In this document: positions 10,369 to 59,040 of the stretch, piece by piece
Layout: the number at the start of each line of letters is the position of its first letter
How positions within the stretch are numbered: the stretch's first letter is position 1
NCBI RefSeq assembly: GCF_001262505.1
Contig: NZ_KQ410724.1
Span: 320,848-384,847, forward strand
Reading direction: 5' to 3'
DNA: 64,000 bases
From: Shinella sp. SUS2
Lineage (GTDB): Bacteria; Pseudomonadota; Alphaproteobacteria; Rhizobiales; Rhizobiaceae
Position numbers and translations under genes: made by a program
Notes under the pieces: generated by a model
The model's database searches: none
Told to the model about the DNA's origin: nothing
The model's input: only the letters and a program-made list of their open reading frames with translations

Positions 10369-10928
10369 GGCGGCCGATTCGCCGCGAGGTTGTCCACAGG
10401 CGAATTCATATTTCGGGCATTTGACTTGGAAATCCGCAGGTTGCACGGTTCGTGCCGGTTGCTGACCGTACGTGAACCGTGTCGCCCCCGGAATCCGGTC
10501 ACGTGGTGAAAATTGGCTATAAGTCGTACTATTCGACTTTGGTGAAGCCTATCAATGGGTTGTATCGTGTATCGCCTTCCCGTACGTCAACCGGGTATTT
10601 TGCCATGGTTGCACATTTCTCTTGCTATGGTTGAAATTGATGTTGCCAACCATTGTTGCGATCCATGACGGAACCGCTGCTCAATGGCACACGTCTCCTC
10701 GGCGCGGTTAACTATGAGACAAGGCTCCGGCGGGGGAGCGTTAAGAATTCGTTGATTTTTTTTCTTTTTCGCGCGATGCTCAACTCATGCGCGGCAAACG
10801 AGGCCGCACAACCGGTTACCCCATGATGCTAGGTCCGCCGCATCTCCTGGGTCGTGGGGTCGGTCGGTCAGCTACGACAAATACGGAATCCTCGTGCCGT
10901 CGTCGTGTCTGACCGACCCCCATTCAAC

Positions 10929-28329: not shown

Positions 28330-28617
28330 ATGTCCGTAGATCTAGCCACCGTGAAGCGCGTCGCGCGTCTTGCCCGCATCGCCGTCAGCGAGGAAGAGGC
28401 AGACCGCATGACCGGCGAGCTGAACGGCATCCTCGGCTTTGTCGAGCAGCTGTCCGAAGTCAATGTCGACGGCGTCGAGCCGATGACCTCCGTCACGCCG
28501 ATGGAGATGAAGAAGCGCGAGGATGTCGTCAATGACGGCAACAAGGCGGATGCCATCGTTGCCAATGCGCCGGCCACCGACCGTAATTTCTTCCAGGTTC
28601 CGAAGGTGGTGGAGTAA
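28330..28617 (+). CDS. gatC: Asp-tRNA(Asn)/Glu-tRNA(Gln) amidotransferase subunit C
   Basis: 95 aa product with [29 protein letters not shown]. Confidence 0.92.
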
Positions 28618-28620
28618 TCC

Positions 28621-29085
28621 TTGGCCGTCACCCTCGCCATCGAGAGCCCGCTTAGCGATGAGGTTCGCGCGCTGGTCGCCGAGCTGAACACCGTGCTGCT
28701 CGCGCTCTCGCCGCCGGAGGCCTGCTACCACCTGACCGTCGAGCAGATGGCCGAGCCGGCCGTGACGGTCTGGATCGCCCGTGACGAGGGAACCGTCGTC
28801 GGCTGCGGTGCGCTGAAGCGCCATTCCGCGGCGGTGGGCGAGGTGAAGCGCATGTTCACCCGGCCGGACTGGCAGGGGCAGGGCATCGGCCGGCGCATCC
28901 TTGGCGAGATCCAGGCTGCCGCCGAACGGGAGAAGCTGGAAACGCTCGTGCTCGAAACAGGCGACCAGCACCCGGCTGCCTGGGCGATCTACGAGAAGGC
29001 CGGGTTCACCCGCTGCGGCCCCGTGCTCGACTATCCGGATTCACCCTATTCCATATTCTATCAAAAGCAGCTTCGTGCTGCCTGA
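28621..29085 (+). CDS. GNAT family N-acetyltransferase inserted between gatC and gatA
   Basis: TTG start 4 nt after the gatC stop. Acetyl-CoA binding motif (VKRMFTRPDWQGQGIGRRIL). Ends 7-19 nt before gatA. Confidence 0.7.
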   Translation: MAVTLAIESPLSDEVRALVAELNTVLLALSPPEACYHLTVEQMAEPAVTVWIARDEGTVVGCGALKRHSAAVGEVKRMFTRPDWQGQGIGRRILGEIQAAAEREKLETLVLETGDQHPAAWAIYEKAGFTRCGPVLDYPDSPYSIFYQKQLRAA

Positions 29086-29091
29086 CCCGAA

Positions 29092-30585
29092 GTGACCGCA
29101 CCCATGACCGATCTGACCCGCCTGACCATTGCCGAAGCCCGCGAAAAGCTCGGCGCCAAGGAGATCACCGCCGTTGAGCTGACGGACGCCTATCTTGGCG
29201 CGATCGAGGCGGCGAACCCTGTCATCAACGCCTATGTCGCCGTGACGCCGGAAAAGGCGCGCGATATGGCGAAGGCCTCTGATGGCCGCATCGCTGCCGG
29301 CAAGGCAGGTGCGCTTGAGGGCATCCCGCTCGGCATCAAGGACCTGTTTGCGACCGAGGGTGTGCATACCCAGGCCTGCAGCCACATCCTCGACGGCTTC
29401 AGGCCGGAATACGAATCGACGGTCACCGGGAACCTGTGGGCCGATGGCGCCGTCATGCTCGGCAAGCTGAACATGGACGAGTTCGCGATGGGCTCCTCCA
29501 ACGAGAGTTCCTATTACGGCGTGGTCAAGAACCCGTGGCGCGCGAACGGATCCAACGCCGATCTCGTCCCGGGCGGTTCGTCCGGTGGTTCGGCCGCGGC
29601 CGTTGCCGCGTTCCTGTGCGCCGGTGCGACGGCGACGGACACCGGCGGCTCGATCCGCCAGCCCGCCGCCTTCACCGGCACCGTCGGCATCAAGCCGACC
29701 TATGGCCGCTGCTCGCGCTGGGGCATCGTCGCCTTCGCCTCCTCGCTCGACCAGGCCGGCCCGATCGCCCGCGACGTGCGCGATGCGGCGATCCTCTTGA
29801 AGTCCATGGCAAGCGTCGATGCCAAGGATACCACCTCCGTCGATCTGCCGGTGCCGGACTACGAAGCCGCGCTCGGCCAGTCGCTGAAGGGCATGCGTAT
29901 CGGCATACCGCGCGAATACCGCGTCGAGGGCATGCCGGAGGAGATCGAGGCGCTCTGGCAGCAGGGCATCGCCTGGCTGAAGGAGGCCGGTGCCGAGATC
30001 GTCGACATTTCCCTGCCGCACACCAAGTACGCGCTGCCGGCCTATTACATCGTCGCGCCCGCCGAAGCCTCGTCGAACCTCGCCCGCTATGACGGCGTGC
30101 GCTACGGCCTGCGCGTCGACGGCAAGGACATCGTCGACATGTACGAGAAGACGCGCGCTGCCGGTTTCGGCCAGGAGGTCAAGCGCCGCATCATGATCGG
30201 CACCTACGTGCTGTCGGCCGGGTATTACGACGCCTACTACCTCCAGGCGCAGAAGGTTCGCACGCTGATCAAGCGCGACTTCGAGCTCGCCTTCAACGCC
30301 GGTGTCGACGCGATCCTGACCCCGGCGACGCCGTCCTCCGCCTTCGGCATCGCCGACGAGGACCTCGCATCCGACCCGGTCAAGATGTACCTGCAGGACA
30401 TTTTTACCGTCACGGTGAACATGGCCGGCCTGCCGGGCCTTTCCGTGCCCGCCGGTCTCGACCACAAGGGCCTGCCCCTCAGCCTCCAGCTCATTGGCAA
30501 GCCCTTCGAGGAGGAGGTCCTCTTCAAGACGGCGCATGTCATCGAAAAGGCCGCCGGCCGCTTCACGCCGGCCAGGTGGTGGTAA
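29092..30585 (+). CDS. gatA: Glutamyl-tRNA(Gln) amidotransferase subunit A
   Basis: Amidase signature ([13 protein letters not shown]). The start may be the ATG at 29104 (MTDLTRL). Confidence 0.93.
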
Positions 30586-30840
30586 GGGGCCTTCAGCCCC
30601 TTCTGCCTGCACTGCGGGCGTACGGTTTCAATCGCCAGATCGTGTCGTAGCGGCAACACCTGCCGTTACGACAGGCGTGTCCGCGTCTTTTTTGCTTGAT
30701 CCCTTCCGAAGTCGAGAATAAACGCGCCTTCCCGGTCGTTCAGCCGGTGCGGATGTCAACGGATGGAGTTTTCCGCTCCTCCCGCGCGAGGCGGCCCTGC
30801 CGTCGTCGTGTACGGATGCCGCACCGAGAAGACTGGTATT

Positions 30841-30914
30841 GCGGACCTAGCTCAGCGGTAGAGCACCGGATGTTCCTCCGGAGGTCGCGGGTTCGATTCC
30901 CGTTGTCTGCTCCA
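30841..30914 (+). tRNA. tRNA-like gene with an anomalous 6-nt anticodon loop (TGTTCC), G3:U70 and a C7.U66 mismatch; identity ambiguous, possibly a pseudo-tRNA
   Basis: Clear D arm (GCTCAGCGGTAGAGC). T arm identical to the genuine tRNA-Gly at 58967. 3' CCA present. The anticodon stem CCGGA/TCCGG leaves only 6 loop nucleotides. Confidence 0.5.
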
Positions 30915-30984
30915 TTGGATAGCTCAGTGGTAGAGCATCAGATTGTTACTCTGACTGTGGAAGGTTCGAATCCTTCTCCAAAGC
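30913..30984 (+). tRNA. tRNA-Asn(GTT)-like element lacking an encoded CCA, with an A2.A71 mismatch; it overlaps the upstream tRNA-like gene by 2 nt
   Basis: D arm GCTCAGTGGTAGAGC. Anticodon stem TCAGA/TCTGA with loop TTGTTAC. T arm GAAGG-TTCGAAT-CCTTC. Acceptor CATTGGA/TCCAAAG. Confidence 0.45.
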
Positions 30985-31427
30985 GCTGACTCAAAATCAG
31001 CGACAGCCTTCCAAGCTGTCTTACCTCCGGTCCGGGGACCGGACTGCGGACGGTAGACCGCAAGTGGGCCGAAAGGCGCGTTTGTGGAAAACCCGACGCC
31101 GGACATTCGCGGTCCGGTTCGCGGTGACGGTCAAGCCGCCTTCCGGCCGGCAAGGGTGCCGCGGCATCCAAGCCCGCTTGAAGGCCGCGCGGCCCTCTCC
31201 CGAAAACCCGCCGCCGATGGCCGTCAGCCGGTTCCCGGATCATGCCTGTTGAAACATACCCCGCCCGCAGGTTCCCCGGGCGAAAAGGGGCTCACCGGGA
31301 ACTGGCAAGGGAAACGGAACCGGAACCGTGTTTGTGGTCCGCACCATCCCGCCGCCGATGCCAACAGAAACCAACGACGAAAGGACGATCGGTTCATGAC
31401 GTAGCGTATGACCGAAGGAGCAGAACG

Positions 31428-32573
31428 ATGACGATATTTCTCGATACGATCCTGGGGCGCACACGCGTCCTCGTGAAGGCAAACGAACGGGTGCTCGCCC
31501 TCTACAGGGGAGAAGTCCTCGGCATATTCGGCGCCGGTGAACACAGCCTGCCGAACCGCCGTGGCATGCTGGAGCTGGAACGTCACGACGTGAACCGGCC
31601 GACCTTCGTCTCGGCCTACGAGAAGCCGTTGTTCGATGGGCTCCCGGCGGTCGCGCAGCGCGAGCTGACGGTCTTTCGCACGAATGCCCGCGAGGTGGCT
31701 GTCGTCGAACGTGACGGTGAGCTTCACGCCGTTCTTGCACCGAACCAGAAGCTTGTGGTCTGGAACGCGGCAGGTCCGTGGACGGAGACGCGTGTCGACC
31801 TGGCCGGCGGGCTCGATGTCGATCCGGAGCTGATGCGCCGGTTGACGCGGGCGCGTCGCCTGGAACTCGTCACGGCCTTCCTGGTCAATGACGGGCAGGT
31901 CGGCCTGCTTGTCATCGACGGGACGCACCAGCGCATGCTGGAGCCGGGCGTCCACGCCTTCTGGAATGTCGGCCGGACGATCCAGGTGCGCGTGGTCGAT
32001 CTCAAGCGCCAGTCGCTCGACGTCACCGGTCAGGAGCTGCTCACCCGCGACAAGGTCACGATCCGGGTGAACATCGCTGCCGAATACCGCGTCGTCGAAC
32101 CGCTGAAGGCCGTCTCGGAGGTCAAGGATTTTGCGGATGCCCTCTACCGGGCGCTGCAGTTCGCCTTCCGCCAGACGCTTGGCACGCTGACGCTCGACCA
32201 GATCCTCGAACGCAAGGTGACGGTCCATGCGGAAGCGGCCGAGAAGGTCCGCACCGACATGGCCGCGATCGGGGTCGAGGTCTCGGCCATCGAGCTCAAG
32301 GACGTGATCCTGCCGGGCGAGATGCGCGACATCCTCAACCAGGTTGTCGCCGCTGAAAAGCAGGCCGAGGCCAATGTCATTCGCCGCCGCGAGGAGACGA
32401 ACGCCACCCGTTCGCTCCTCAACACGGCGAAGGTGATGGCGGAGAACCCGGTCATGCTGCGGCTGAAGGAGCTGGAAGCGCTGGAGGCCATCGCCGGCAA
32501 GGTCGAGCGCCTGACGATCCACAACGGAACGGCGGGCCTGATGAACGACCTCGTCCAGCTTCGCGACAAGTAG
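31428..32573 (+). CDS. SPFH/band-7 (slipin-like) domain protein with an N-terminal ~70 aa extension and a long coiled-coil C-terminus
   Basis: AAGGAG SD before the ATG at 31428. Band-7 core (TRDKVTIRVNIAAEYRVV...LDQILERK) plus an Ala/Glu-rich helical tail. The first 62 codons of the track ORF are a likely artefact. Confidence 0.8.
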   Translation: MTIFLDTILGRTRVLVKANERVLALYRGEVLGIFGAGEHSLPNRRGMLELERHDVNRPTFVSAYEKPLFDGLPAVAQRELTVFRTNAREVAVVERDGELHAVLAPNQKLVVWNAAGPWTETRVDLAGGLDVDPELMRRLTRARRLELVTAFLVNDGQVGLLVIDGTHQRMLEPGVHAFWNVGRTIQVRVVDLKRQSLDVTGQELLTRDKVTIRVNIAAEYRVVEPLKAVSEVKDFADALYRALQFAFRQTLGTLTLDQILERKVTVHAEAAEKVRTDMAAIGVEVSAIELKDVILPGEMRDILNQVVAAEKQAEANVIRRREETNATRSLLNTAKVMAENPVMLRLKELEALEAIAGKVERLTIHNGTAGLMNDLVQLRDK

Positions 32574-32716
32574 GGGATCGCCCGGCCGGAAGGCCGGGCG
32601 GTTCCGTTTCGGCGGGTATTCGCTTCCCTCTCTCCATCATCTCCGTGGATAGTCTTTCGTCTCCCTCGCCAAGCCTTTCCGGCAATGCTTTCATGGTGTC
32701 GGAAAGGGCCGCCCGC

Positions 32717-33229
32717 ATGATCGCCGTTCGCAATGCCCGTGAGGACGATGTTCCCGCTCTCGTCGAAATCGGCGTTCGGGCCTGGGAACAGGCCGTCGTC
32801 GGCGTCGCCGACCTGCAGGTGCGGCGCGACTATGCCCGCAACGCCTTCCAGCAGTTCCTTGCCCGCCACTGGTTGCGGGTGAGCGTCGCTGAAACCGAGG
32901 GCCGGACGGCCGGATGGGCGGCGCGCGAGGCGCTGGACGACGAGATCAGCGACCTCTGGATCGACCCGCCACAGCAGAAGAAGGGGCTCGGCTCCGCCTT
33001 GCTCTCCGCCATGGAGGCGGAGATCGTCGCAGCGGGTTTCGAGGCGGCGCGGTTGCAGACGCATGCCCGCAACACGGCCGCCGTCGGCTTCTTCCAGAAG
33101 CACGGCTATAGCGTGAACTGGCTGTCTATCGACTATTCCGAACGCCTCGACCGCGATGTCGAGTCGGTCGGCCTGCGCCGGCAGCTCGTTGCGGACGAGC
33201 CGCCCGGCTACGGGCCGGGCGGGTTCTGA
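32717..33229 (+). CDS. GNAT family N-acetyltransferase
   Basis: 170 aa from MIAVRNAREDDVPAL. Motif QQKKGLGSALLSAME. Confidence 0.7.
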   Translation: MIAVRNAREDDVPALVEIGVRAWEQAVVGVADLQVRRDYARNAFQQFLARHWLRVSVAETEGRTAGWAAREALDDEISDLWIDPPQQKKGLGSALLSAMEAEIVAAGFEAARLQTHARNTAAVGFFQKHGYSVNWLSIDYSERLDRDVESVGLRRQLVADEPPGYGPGGF

Positions 33230-33263: not shown

Positions 33264-33521
33264 TCACTGGTTGTCCAGCTGGGCCCGCACCAGCTCCAGG
33301 CCGCGTTGCGTGATGCGGTAGGGCCTGCCGCCGGAGGAGGCGATGCACCGCCGGCGCTTCAGTTTCCGGAAGAGGTCGATGTCGAGGCCGCTCGCTCGCC
33401 AGCCGTCCCGCGTGATGCAGGCGACCGTCATGACCTTCCGGTTGTCGTCTTTTTCGATGTCGATCCTGCCGCCCTGGGCGAGCAGATGGAGAATGCGCTG
33501 TTCGGCGCGCGAAATGTCCAT
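33264..33521 (-). CDS. UPF0386 / YjhX (TopAI) family protein, a putative topoisomerase I-inhibitor toxin homolog
   Basis: 85 aa, MDISRAEQRILHLLAQGGRI...KLKRRRCIASSGGRPYRITQRGLELVRAQLDNQ. It is collinear with, and the same length as, E. coli YjhX as recalled. Confidence 0.75.
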   Translation of the reverse strand: MDISRAEQRILHLLAQGGRIDIEKDDNRKVMTVACITRDGWRASGLDIDLFRKLKRRRCIASSGGRPYRITQRGLELVRAQLDNQ

Positions 33522-33714: not shown

Positions 33715-34617
33715 TCAATGCATCGGCCAGATCAGGGAATGGTGCAGGAAGACGGCAGTCTTCACGCCGTTGGCCGAGGCGAGCGAGATGTTGGCCGCCC
33801 CGAGCGCGATGTCGCCGGCTGCATAGAGGCCGGGCAGGGAGGTCTGGCCCGTGTCGTCTGTGTGGAGGATGCTGCCGATCGGCGTTTCCTTCAGCGTCAG
33901 GCCGCGCCCGGCCGGGATGGTGCTGCGCACCCGCGCCTCCGGCATCACGAAGAGCGCCTTCACGAGGGTCGGGATGCCCGGCCCGGTTTCGACGGACAAG
34001 AGGCCATCCGGCCCGTCGGCGATGGCGGTGACGCGGCCCGGCCGGAGCTTCACATTGCGCTCGGCGAGCACGGCAAGGGCCGCGTCGTCCGGCTCCGGCG
34101 CCATGTTGGTAAAGAGCGTGACATTGCCCCAGTCGGCGACCACCGCCGCAAAGCGCGCCGCCTCGGCCGTGCGCGCCAGCACGCCGACCGGTCCACCGCC
34201 CACCTCGTAGCCATGGCAATAGGGGCAATGCAGCACCGTCTTGCCCCAGCGCTCGGCAAGGCCCGGGATATCGGGCAACTGGTCCTCGAAGCCGGTGGCA
34301 AGCAGCACGCGGCGCGCCGCAATCCGCCCGTCGTCGCCGGTGACGACGGAGAAGGCGTCCTTCTCCCCGTCCAGCCGTTCGGCCGGCACGTCACGGAAGG
34401 TGACCGTCGCGTAGGCGGCCAGCTGTCGGCGGGCATCGGCAAGGATGTCGCGGCCCGGCCGGCCGTCCTGGGCGAGGAAGCCGTGCGAATGGGCGGCGAA
34501 GCGGTTGCGCGGCTCGCCGGTGTCGAGAATGGTGATGCGGCGCCGGGCGCGGGCAAGCTGCAGGGCGGCGGAAAGGCCGGCAAAGCCCCCGCCGATGATG
34601 ATGGCATCTTCGGTCAT
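33715..34617 (-). CDS. FAD-dependent pyridine nucleotide-disulfide oxidoreductase (thioredoxin reductase-like)
   Basis: IIGGGFAGLSAA dinucleotide fold, a redox-active CPYCHGYE pair, and a C-terminal GDIALGAAN motif. Confidence 0.75.
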   Translation of the reverse strand: MTEDAIIIGGGFAGLSAALQLARARRRITILDTGEPRNRFAAHSHGFLAQDGRPGRDILADARRQLAAYATVTFRDVPAERLDGEKDAFSVVTGDDGRIAARRVLLATGFEDQLPDIPGLAERWGKTVLHCPYCHGYEVGGGPVGVLARTAEAARFAAVVADWGNVTLFTNMAPEPDDAALAVLAERNVKLRPGRVTAIADGPDGLLSVETGPGIPTLVKALFVMPEARVRSTIPAGRGLTLKETPIGSILHTDDTGQTSLPGLYAAGDIALGAANISLASANGVKTAVFLHHSLIWPMH

Positions 34618-34703
34618 GGTTCATCCTTTCTGTGGAGCGCGCGGCATCGTTCGCCCGATGGGTATCGGTCGTTCGATGCGGAGTATCGGGAAGGCGTTCC
34701 CGT

Positions 34704-35147
34704 TTAGCCGGTATCGGTCCGACGGCGTTTCGCCGCCACCCGGTAATCGGCGGCGAGGTCGGCAAGCGTCGTGCCGGCGAAGCGCGCCATCAGGATCGCC
34801 TCGGCGTCCTTCAGCGCGTCACCGATCACCCGGTTGACGGATTGCTCGATCACGCAGCCCGGCATTTCCGTCGCCGGGCCGATCTGGAAGACGATCGGCT
34901 CGCCGAGCGCGTTGTAGATGTCGAGCAGCGAGATGTCCGCAAGCGGCCGGGCAAATTGCCAGCCGCCGCCATGGCCGCGGCCGGATTGCACGATACCGGC
35001 GTCGCGAAGGCCTGCCATGGTGCGCCGGACGACGACGGCATTGGTGTCGAGGCAGAGTGCAAGGTCGTCCGAGGTCATCGGCGCCTCGCGTTCGGCCATG
35101 TGCATGAGTGCGTGGAGCACGGCGGAAAGACGGCTGTTTCTTTTCAT
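34704..35147 (-). CDS. Rrf2 family transcriptional regulator
   Basis: wHTH (RLSAVLHALMHMA...SDDLALCLDTNAVVVRRTMAGLRDAGIV). The start at MKRNSRL (35147) lies upstream of the TrxR-like gene. Confidence 0.8.
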   Translation of the reverse strand: MKRNSRLSAVLHALMHMAEREAPMTSDDLALCLDTNAVVVRRTMAGLRDAGIVQSGRGHGGGWQFARPLADISLLDIYNALGEPIVFQIGPATEMPGCVIEQSVNRVIGDALKDAEAILMARFAGTTLADLAADYRVAAKRRRTDTG

Positions 35148-35202
35148 GTAACAATAATAGTTACGAATCTTGCTTTCTGTCAACATGCCGGCGATGCAGG
35201 TG

Positions 35203-35508
35203 TCAGCCGGCGCGCAGTGTGCGGACGAGGGCAGGGCCGAAAATCAGCGCCGCCGGCACGAGCGCCGCGTGCAGAATCAGGATCGCCATCAGCTGCGTGC
35301 GAAAGGGCTCCTTGCGCGTCTTGTGCCGCAGCAGCTGTTGCGCGGCGACGGCGCCGAGGCTGCCGCCGAAGAGGGCGAACTGCAGCAGCCGCGCTTCGGA
35401 AACGCGCCAATGGCCGTCACGCGCGGCCTCCTTGTCCCACCAGTAGAGGCAGAACGTCACGACGTTGAGGAGAAGGAAGATGATGAGAAGCGTTGTCGTC
35501 GTACCCAT
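35203..35508 (-). CDS. DUF1294 family membrane protein
   Basis: Motifs [15 protein letters not shown] and RHKTRKEPF, with two TM helices. Confidence 0.7.
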
Positions 35509-58966: not shown

Positions 58967-59040
58967 GCGGGTATAGCTCAATGGTAGAGCAGCAGCCTTC
59001 CAAGCTGAATACGCGGGTTCGATTCCCGCTACCCGCTCCA
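58967..59040 (+). tRNA. tRNA-Gly(TCC)
   Basis: Acceptor GCGGGTA/TACCCGC, anticodon loop CTTCCAA, T arm GCGGGTTCGATTCCCGC, CCA end. Confidence 0.9.

Follow-up and report, generated by a model that had tools for sequence, protein, structure and literature searches.

We analysed a window of 64,000 nucleotides (nt) from Shinella sp. SUS2 (assembly GCF_001262505.1, contig NZ_KQ410724.1, positions 320,848 to 384,847 of the forward strand; positions below are those of the window), concentrating on the segment between gatA and a gene that encodes a slipin-family SPFH/Band-7 protein. This segment contains two overlapping tRNA-like elements (TL1 and TL2), followed by two hairpins with the look of isolated anticodon arms (hairpins A and B) and by a long rod-like domain, and a further structured domain precedes TL1 (Table 1). 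Our results suggest that all these pieces belong to one RNA of about 700 nt, which goes with the slipin gene and not with gatA, and which is related to tRNA-like elements found in the RNA-repair (rtc) operons of other Proteobacteria.

An earlier note, made from the letters of the window, had described the first element as carrying a 6-nt loop with no readable anticodon, a G3:U70 pair and a C7.U66 mismatch. ARAGORN, Rfam and the sequence agree on this point: ARAGORN calls TL1 as 'tRNA-???' with a 2-nt anticodon, equivalent to the 6-nt loop, and both the G3:U70 pair and the mismatch can be read directly in the window. TL1 scores 51.3 bits on the Rfam tRNA model, which has a gathering score of 29 bits, and its minimum-energy fold, when folded alone, is the cloverleaf. 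The T arm of TL1 had been called identical to that of the genuine tRNA-Gly(TCC) at 58967, which is slightly overstated, as 16 of the 17 bases match and pair 49:65 is G:U, not G:C. TL2 had been taken for a tRNA-Asn(GTT) with an A2.A71 mismatch and no CCA, starting within the CCA of TL1. ARAGORN and cmscan bear this out: ARAGORN calls tRNA-Asn(GTT), the element scores 59.1 bits on the tRNA model, and the cmscan alignment marks A2.A71, C73 and the absent CCA. The two elements overlap by 2 nt. Finally, folding of the segment after TL2 gave the two perfect hairpins with 7-nt loops that had been noticed there (z = -3.8 for both together), and hairpin B does carry the loop of the tRNA-Gly(TCC), since 15 bases are identical between this hairpin and the anticodon arm of the genuine tRNA (CAGCCTTCCAAGCTG).

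This arrangement is not a product of chance, because it recurs in every related locus examined. Slipin homologs with 69-77% identity are present in Ensifer soli, Rhizobium viscosum, R. jaguaris, Nitratireductor, Mesorhizobium, Beijerinckia and several metagenomes. In all 10 slipin-homolog loci examined, which come from Rhizobiales and metagenomes, the slipin gene is preceded by a gene-free gap of 700-820 nt in which ARAGORN finds the tandem pair. To these loci, a scan of metagenome and viral contigs with a sequence pattern across the TL1/TL2 junction added nine more metagenome contigs, with the slipin gene downstream in every one long enough. The same scan gave no match in the viral contigs, and no sign of a phage origin. 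Among 80 gatA loci, that of Neorhizobium sp. DT-125 has the same overlapping pair, called as '???' and Ile(GAT), and a sister Neorhizobium gatA locus has no tandem pair. A search of plasmid DNA with the region returned only ordinary tRNA arrays of Firmicutes, and no integrase or repeat boundary was seen.

The tRNA-like/slipin unit is conserved in Rhizobiaceae, Phyllobacteriaceae and Beijerinckiaceae, in neighbourhoods that include gatA-gatB, the acpXL lipid A cluster and other, unrelated ones. Since in Mesorhizobium, Nitratireductor and Beijerinckia the unit is located away from gatA, the link with gatA is incidental. The comparison of the loci shows that the RNA belongs to the slipin gene, and not to gatA, and that this linkage is obligate. 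Note that a connection between the apparent tRNA-Asn and GatCAB was also considered, and was rejected because other families carry the unit in a different place and because the anticodon varies.

To describe the RNA of the family we used 17 non-redundant leaders (Rhizobiales and metagenome loci), aligned over their whole length (alignment A3). In 16 of the 17, TL1 keeps G1:C72, C2:G71, G3:U70 and the encoded CCA, and positions 5:68, 6:67 and 7:66 covary, as do the T stem and the anticodon stem. The 7-bp acceptor and the CCA of TL1 are present in Rhizobiales, although C7.U66 is mismatched in 7 of the 17 sequences. The 'anticodon' loop, with 6 nt in the window, varies from 4 to 8 nt among the relatives, and some of these loops are GNRA tetraloops. 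TL2 starts either inside the CCA of TL1 or 0-3 nt past it. Its acceptor is reduced to three invariant pairs (GGA:UCC) plus one to three further ones, of which one is U:A in just 9 of the 17. Its loop always has 7 nt and an invariant U33, and carries a variable triplet: relatives of the Shinella GTT show GTT, GAT, TGT, GCG, TTT, TAT, CAT, TAG and ACG, with differences even among close kin. Twelve of the 17 triplets end in U, followed by AA, which is the context of t6A37-modified tRNAs. Both elements retain the nucleotides of the tRNA L-shape (U8, A14, G18-G19, the T-loop UUCGA and Y48), together with the Levitt pair and the stem lengths. Because the TL1 loop has 4-8 nt, and because TL2 has an acceptor of 3-5 bp, no CCA and a drifting triplet, neither element can decode; both are under selection for the shape of a tRNA.

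The hairpins behave similarly. Hairpin A, with a loop that matches CUNNNAA, is present in 12 of the 17 loci; it is absent from four (L084, L085, L091 and L093), and in L082 one divergent hairpin replaces both A and B. Hairpin B is nearly universal and its stem covaries, CACC/GGUG being exchanged for CAGC/GCUG. The 7-nt loops at 30943-30949 (TL2), 30990-30996 (A) and 31008-31014 (B), and the corresponding columns of the alignment, resemble assorted tRNA anticodon loops, including the fitting residues 37 and 38. Examples are CUGUCAC, CUGUUAA, CUUCCAA, CUGAAAA and UUUGGGU, of which the first four match the real loops of Asp, Asn, Gly and Phe tRNAs, respectively. We also looked within the RNA for a 'codon' or kissing-loop partner of the triplets of TL2 and hairpin B and of the NCC of TL1. 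The best segment was complementary in 35-59% of the sequences, and a partner in cis for the variable triplets was therefore rejected.

The conserved RNA extends well beyond the tRNA-like elements on both sides. Upstream, all 17 Rhizobiales loci carry the motif CTTG(A/C)N-N16-17-(C/A)TAWAN at a fixed distance from the conserved RNA. In the window this putative sigma70-type promoter would start transcription near 30729; it was not called by a scan for the E. coli-type consensus, and we propose it because it is conserved in all 17 loci. Helices 2-5 of the 5' domain are 91-100% paired, with compensatory changes at 45:125, 62:80 and 85:110, and the domain of the window folds with z = -3.8. Compensatory changes are seen at 32 pairs of the rod, in helices 16 and 18-23. 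The thermodynamic fold of the rod of the window has the same shape as the consensus (z = -4.35).

The earlier note had described a long-range inverted repeat, CCGGTTCCCGG...CCGGGAACTGG, in this part of the leader. The repeat exists, but CCGGGAACTGG lies in a lineage-specific insertion that is missing in most of the aligned loci and gives no signal on folding (z = 0.14). Instead, CCGGUUCCCGGAUC (31228-31241) has its conserved and covarying partner in GGUCCGGGGACCGG at 31029-31042, and this closing helix is 99% paired. A role of the CCGGTTCCCGG...CCGGGAACTGG repeat as a switch was rejected, as one partner is in the insertion and the pairing with 31228-41 is not kept in L091. The insertion also carries GGUUCCCCGG, nearly identical to the 3' strand of the closing helix, and the complement of GGUUCCCCGG; it has the look of a partial duplication of local origin, with a hairpin of its own.

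The whole structure was scored as the RNAalifold consensus plus two hand-added helices, using as controls column shuffles (n = 500) and slid partners. RNAalifold gave 120 pairs, 52 of them with compensatory changes. In the scored structure, 53 pairs showed double changes, compared to 26.9±2.6 in the shuffles, none of which (0/500) reached this value; 94.7% of the cells were paired, versus 86.7% after column shuffling and about 42% with slid partners. Because this covariation is very strong, the alignment indicates that the RNA is real in the evolutionary sense.

Table 1. Features of the tRNA-like/slipin unit of Shinella sp. SUS2 and of its gatCAB neighbourhood (window positions)
Feature	Position	Strand	Description
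gatC	28330-28617		
GNAT gene	28621-29085		
gatA	29092-30585		
Intrinsic terminator of gatA	30673-30695	+	Terminator-like stem and T run; upstream boundary of the unit
Putative sigma70-type promoter	30695-30722	+	-35 CTTGAT 30695-30700, 16-nt spacer, -10 AATAAA 30717-30722
5' domain, ~110 nt	30728-30840	+	Nested helices H2 30746-51/30820-25, H3 30761-82, H4/5 30784-30811
TL1	30841-30914	+	Full cloverleaf; canonical D and T loops; G1:C72, C2:G71, G3:U70; encoded CCA
TL2	30913-30984	+	D, anticodon and T arms conserved; reduced acceptor stem; no CCA
Hairpin A	30985-31001	+	GCUGA-CUCAAAA-UCAGC; 5-bp stem, 7-nt loop; optional in the family
Hairpin B	31002-31020	+	GACAGC-CUUCCAA-GCUGUC; 6-bp stem, 7-nt loop; nearly universal in the family
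3' rod domain, ~210 nt	31029-31241	+	14-bp closing helix 31029-42/31228-41; side branch 31043-31099; long interrupted helix 31100-31223
Lineage-specific insertion	31242-31379	+	In Shinella and, shorter, in Ensifer soli; contains CCGGGAACTGG
Pre-start segment	31380-31427	+	Conserved AAAGGA..AUCGGUyCAUGACGUAG..; Shine-Dalgarno GAAGGAG 31414-31420
Slipin-family SPFH/Band-7 gene (381 aa)	31428-32573	+	Band_7 match
GNAT gene, downstream of the slipin gene	32645-33229		
gatB	start near 35.6 kb		

The protein encoded by the slipin gene is 96% identical to a 'slipin family protein' of Shinella yambaruensis, in keeping with a Shinella-like genome. Its family comprises 537 clusters at 50% identity (E < 1e-30), with named members in several alphaproteobacterial orders, Rhodospirillales and Rhodobacterales among them. 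The AlphaFold2 model (mean pLDDT 75) has an N-terminal beta-rich region, the SPFH domain and a long helix, and no transmembrane segment is predicted in it. In the N-terminal region, a beta module of about 65 aa (motif V..ER.L...G....L.PG.H..W) is repeated, and an 894-aa relative (P0201) has about eight of these modules, followed by the SPFH domain and the helix. Major vault protein (MVP) aligns over more of the slipin model than ordinary SPFH proteins do. Judged from the model, the repeat modules and the MVP alignment, the protein may form a soluble, vault-like cage.

Next, relatives of the pair outside Alphaproteobacteria were identified by tblastn of the slipin against plasmid and chromid records, which returned homologs in Photobacterium, Burkholderia and E. 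coli with 36-39% identity over 96-98% of the length. In Photobacterium, an overlapping pair of tRNA-likes lies directly upstream of the slipin gene and scores 54 and 46 bits on the Rfam tRNA model. In Burkholderia, a minimal acceptor-plus-T-arm element is followed by a tRNA-like with a GAAA-capped anticodon stem, and the E. coli locus (L104; CP061233.1, 611.5-613.7 kb) has only a lone T-arm remnant, ATGGGTTCGATTCCCAC. A profile of the alphaproteobacterial tRNA-like pair found the Photobacterium elements with E = 1.3e-17 and those of Burkholderia with E = 2.8e-4. All three loci have a promoter of the TGGCAC-N5-TYGCW type (sigma54). Photobacterium and Burkholderia have a divergent rtcR and, 3' of the slipin gene, rtcB; rlaP is present in Burkholderia and E. 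coli. Sequence comparison thus shows that the RNA and the slipin of Shinella are homologous to elements of rtc operons. Note that 1629 of 5426 complete E. coli genomes carry the slipin-rlaP island. It is a variable island, situated between yjbD (DUF3811) and lysC, and contains the sigma54-type promoter, the T-arm remnant, the slipin gene and the gene of the RlaP nucleotidyltransferase, with no RNA feature annotated. RlaP lengthens damaged RNA 3' ends by one or two nucleotides, and the restoration of heavily damaged tRNA requires it (PMC12776372).

Burroughs and Aravind (Nucleic Acids Res 2016) predicted a noncoding RNA (ncRNA), b7a-tRNA, beside Band-7 and RtcB, as summarised in a bioRxiv preprint (10.1101/312249); that summary proposes it as a functional analogue of YrlA, the two being interchangeable in function, and describes it as experimentally unvalidated as of 2018. 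We found no later report of its validation in the literature, nor any description of the enlarged RNA architecture of Rhizobiales, and Rfam contains no b7a-tRNA family. A 2026 survey of Pseudomonas SPFH proteins notes a paralog embedded in the rtc locus, PaFlo8 of P. aeruginosa, with no RNA mentioned (PMC13086221). The prediction of 2016 has passed almost unnoticed since, and a single paper in the literature searched gives the RNA by name. The abstract of 2016 reportedly counts modules of SPFH/Band-7 and 'a novel tRNA-like molecule' among the possible scaffolding cofactors of systems for RNA repair.

In view of these results, the RNA of Rhizobiales is probably a version of b7a-tRNA that is tandem, enlarged, stand-alone and detached from rtcB, rlaP and rtcR. 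Like b7a-tRNA, it is a tRNA-like RNA located directly upstream of a Band-7/SPFH gene on the same strand, and both the protein and the tRNA-like pair of Shinella are homologous to those of the rtcR-slipin-rtcB(-rlaP) operons of Photobacterium and Burkholderia. However, the Rhizobiales form is unlinked to rtcB, rlaP and rtcR and has a sigma70-type promoter instead of sigma54. In addition, it is a tandem overlapping pair within an RNA of about 700 nt, about three times larger, and its 5' domain, anticodon-arm hairpins and 210-nt rod have no detectable counterpart in the beta- and gammaproteobacterial loci. The view of the earlier note that this could be an undescribed tRNA mimic or structured RNA was accordingly right about the mimicry, and the word 'undescribed' holds only in part, given the prediction of b7a-tRNA cited in the preprint (10.1101/312249).

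The note had found, by eye, no match of the leader to a known ncRNA family. Rfam, at gathering as well as at permissive thresholds, does not explain the leader either, and in a permissive E-value scan of 30600-31500 with Rfam 15, neither a T-box nor another cis-regulatory leader appeared, only tRNA and chance-level matches. A close system is that of YrlA and Ro60 (Rsr), encoded in rsr-yrlBA-rtcBA operons, in which a non-decoding tRNA mimic likewise stands beside a ring- or cage-forming protein in an RNA-repair operon controlled by RtcR and sigma54. YrlA (RF02553) matches 30863-30963, that is, the T arm of TL1 and the D arm of TL2, with 29.2 bits (E = 4e-4). The score is far under the gathering score of 69 bits; there is no Ro-binding stem, an open reading frame and Pfam survey of 26-37 kb found no rsr gene, and Shinella has complete cloverleaves, not a permuted T-arm/D-arm module. 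The order of the matched arms, T arm and then D arm, is that of YrlA, and YrlA-type modules and tandem tRNA-likes might be related. We regarded the Rfam matches to YrlA, mascRNA and tRNA-Sec as sub-threshold echoes of the tRNA shape.

TL1 also resembles the tRNA-like domain of tmRNA, in that G3:U70 and CCA are present on a non-decoding tRNA shape. Here, however, there is no tag reading frame and there are no pseudoknots, and G3:U70 is not conserved outside Rhizobiales; ARAGORN found no tmRNA, and the Rfam tmRNA_permuted match (11 bits) covers the T-loop only. With the E. coli thrS operator and the T-box leaders the RNA shares hairpins shaped like anticodon arms, or tRNA recognition, in a 5' leader. 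In contrast to these, the loop sequences here lack conservation, which rules out one synthetase as the reader of them all, and they have no codon-like partner in the RNA. Ordinary bacterial tRNAs, including those of tRNA genes co-transcribed with mRNAs (thrU-tyrU-glyT-thrT-tufB), have in common with the Shinella elements the cloverleaf, the D and T loops, the CCA of TL1 and, if the RNA and the slipin gene form one transcript as we propose, the co-transcription with a protein gene. They differ from them in that the Shinella-type elements overlap each other and lack a conserved anticodon, TL1 having a loop of 4-8 nt and TL2 a truncated acceptor without CCA.

Taken together, we infer that the unit is transcribed as one piece, processed, bound by the slipin and involved in tRNA damage or repair. 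An RNA of about 700 nt would be transcribed from its own sigma70-type promoter and would read, without a terminator, into the slipin gene, presumably as a single transcript. It folds into the 5' domain, a neighbouring pair of L-shaped tRNA mimics, one or two mimics of anticodon arms and the 210-nt rod. Cleavage by RNase P 5' of TL1 and 5' of TL2 would free TL1 with its CCA end, and either the whole RNA or the excised TL1 would be the cognate partner of a slipin oligomer. The resulting ribonucleoprotein (RNP) would be comparable to that of Ro60 and Y RNA, and would offer surfaces shaped like tRNAs and like anticodon loops to the enzymes of tRNA damage, sensing or repair. As such, it could be a scaffold, a bait or a sensor in tRNA damage. 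In Beta- and Gammaproteobacteria the homologous pair forms the first part of RtcR/sigma54 operons in which the RNA ligase RtcB and RlaP, a nucleotidyltransferase that extends 3' ends, come next; in Rhizobiales, Shinella included, the pair has become stand-alone under the sigma70-type promoter, and its RNA has gained large extra domains.

A bolder form of this proposal takes as its model the vault particle, in which MVP (beta repeats, an SPFH-like shoulder and a cap helix) comes with vault RNA. Here the slipin, with its tandem beta modules, an SPFH 'shoulder' and a cap-like helix, would be a soluble vault-like cage with the RNA of about 700 nt as its dedicated component. The two would make up a bacterial RNP of the vault or Ro kind, a bait or sensor for enzymes that damage tRNA, working without RtcB in Rhizobiales; RNase P would release TL1, which might be alanylated through G3:U70. 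We regard this full picture as speculative and quite unlikely to hold in every part.

Several results weigh against the proposed slipin RNP. The 64-kb window contains no rtcB, rlaP or rtcR, and no Rhizobiales locus has one within 2.5-5 kb; tblastn with RtcB and RlaP gave no match in either. The link with RNA repair is therefore one of homology alone. Profiles of the 5' domain and of the rod gave no match in the beta- and gammaproteobacterial loci, which leaves most of the mass of the RNA without a counterpart. No defence-system model of PADLOC matches either protein. The features of TL1 that could suggest alanylation (G3:U70 and CCA) are limited to Rhizobiales, the TL1 of Photobacterium having U3:A70 and no CCA, and even in Rhizobiales they are not universal: the TL1 of R. 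jaguaris has G3:C70 with two mismatches. Finally, the definition of b7a-tRNA used here comes from a secondary citation (10.1101/312249).

Of the alternatives, a purely cis-acting leader keeps most ground. In this case the tRNA-likes would be signals for processing or stability, either as cutting sites of RNase P and RNase Z/E or as a structured cap at the 5' end of the mRNA, the rod would control the access of ribosomes to the slipin start, and there would be neither a trans-acting RNA nor an RNP. The RNA is indeed contiguous with the gene, with no terminator found between it and the slipin start codon in the terminator scan, and a conserved block lies directly 5' of the Shine-Dalgarno sequence. 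The CCA of TL1 followed at once by TL2 would suit punctuation-type cutting, as expected from the substrate rules of RNase P. A tentative helix between the 5' end and the pre-start segment (30735-39/31396-31400) has two pairs with compensatory changes; its duplex energy, however, is no better than that of shuffles. The related idea that a conserved 5' CUCCC pairs with the Shine-Dalgarno sequence was abandoned, as L103 lacks the motif and pairing of the 5' end with the segments before TL1 or before the Shine-Dalgarno sequence gives duplex energies at the level of shuffles. Moreover, 600-700 nt with at least 120 conserved pairs far exceed what a processing signal needs, the anticodon-arm mimics have no obvious role in processing, and the beta- and gammaproteobacterial tRNA-likes precede a multi-gene operon and, in the summary cited above, were predicted as separate ncRNAs (10.1101/312249). 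We consider the leader rather unlikely as the whole explanation, although it is partly compatible with a slipin RNP.

Also compatible in part with the RNP is a possible role of the RNA as decoy or sensor of tRNA-targeting toxins (anticodon nucleases, acetylating or cleaving toxins), with the triplets under conflict-driven selection and the cleavage of a mimic either signalling or absorbing the attack. The RNA offers up to three canonical 7-nt loops (TL2, A and B), in which U33 is invariant for TL2 and present in most B loops, position 37 is mostly a purine and the 'anticodons' are highly variable; hairpin B of the window equals the arm of a resident tRNA-Gly, and homologous modules are found in operons that are induced by damaged tRNA and encode tRNA-repair enzymes. 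However, a lack of constraint would explain the variability of the loops equally well, hairpin A is dispensable in several lineages, some TL1 loops are plain tetraloops, and no toxin gene is consistently adjacent, YjhX being near only some loci. A decoy seems to us decidedly improbable.

That the elements are working tRNAs, either an odd tRNA and a tRNA-Asn used in translation or donors of aminoacyl groups (Ala-TL1, charged through G3:U70, for a GNAT or Fem-type transferase), we hold to be very improbable. Both pass the Rfam tRNA threshold, G3:U70 is the main identity element for alanyl-tRNA synthetase and occurs with the CCA in nearly all the Rhizobiales TL1 sequences, and GNAT genes are nearby in Rhizobiaceae. 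However, these GNAT genes are unlinked outside Rhizobiaceae, G3:U70 and CCA are absent in R. jaguaris and Photobacterium, and the decoding version is refuted, on the sequences, by the loop of TL1 and by a TL2 with a partial acceptor, no CCA and an anticodon that shifts among close kin; for TL1 of Rhizobiales, a role as an Ala donor outside the ribosome is conceivable. The remaining possibility, a functionless decayed or rearranged tRNA cluster or integrase-site scar beside gatA, as the earlier note had envisaged, could draw on the resemblance to resident tRNAs such as tRNA-Gly(TCC) and on defects that would disable a tRNA, but is refuted and has practically no chance of being right, because the unit, with its compensatory changes, has been kept in several families and classes, always precedes the same gene in unrelated neighbourhoods, has a core recognisable in Gamma- and Betaproteobacteria, and shows neither an integrase or repeat boundary nor, in the scan of viral contigs, any match.

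With a single RNA and a single protein, the unit of Rhizobiales is a self-contained system in which to study SPFH cages with a tRNA-shaped RNA and the sensing or buffering of tRNA damage. The RNA spans at least three proteobacterial classes, and its large composite form persists in Rhizobiales without the repair enzymes. There is also a practical consequence: tRNA detectors accept the elements, which can then be wrongly annotated as tRNA-Asn, Ile, Lys, Thr and others, inflating the counts of tRNA genes.

Finally, the neighbourhood of the unit has some features of its own. In Rhizobiaceae, GNAT acetyltransferase genes are interleaved with gatC, gatA and gatB: they occur in the gatC-gatA gap, after gatA or the slipin gene, and, as two genes, after gatB (loci L081/L082: 8.4-10.3 kb). 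In Shinella, a gene for a YjhX (TopAI-type) toxin (33264-33521, minus strand) lies just 3' of the slipin or GNAT gene. The same gene is found in R. viscosum, R. jaguaris and one metagenome locus, and not in the Mesorhizobium, Nitratireductor and Beijerinckia loci. Between the GNAT gene and gatB, the minus strand (33715-35508) encodes a pyridine nucleotide-disulfide oxidoreductase (33715-34617), an Rrf2-family regulator (34704-35186) and a DUF1294 protein (35203-35508), three genes that the Ensifer soli locus does not have. Elsewhere in the window, Rfam finds the small RNA EcpR1 (Atu_C6), as expected for Rhizobiaceae, at 10816-10923, with 81.8 bits.

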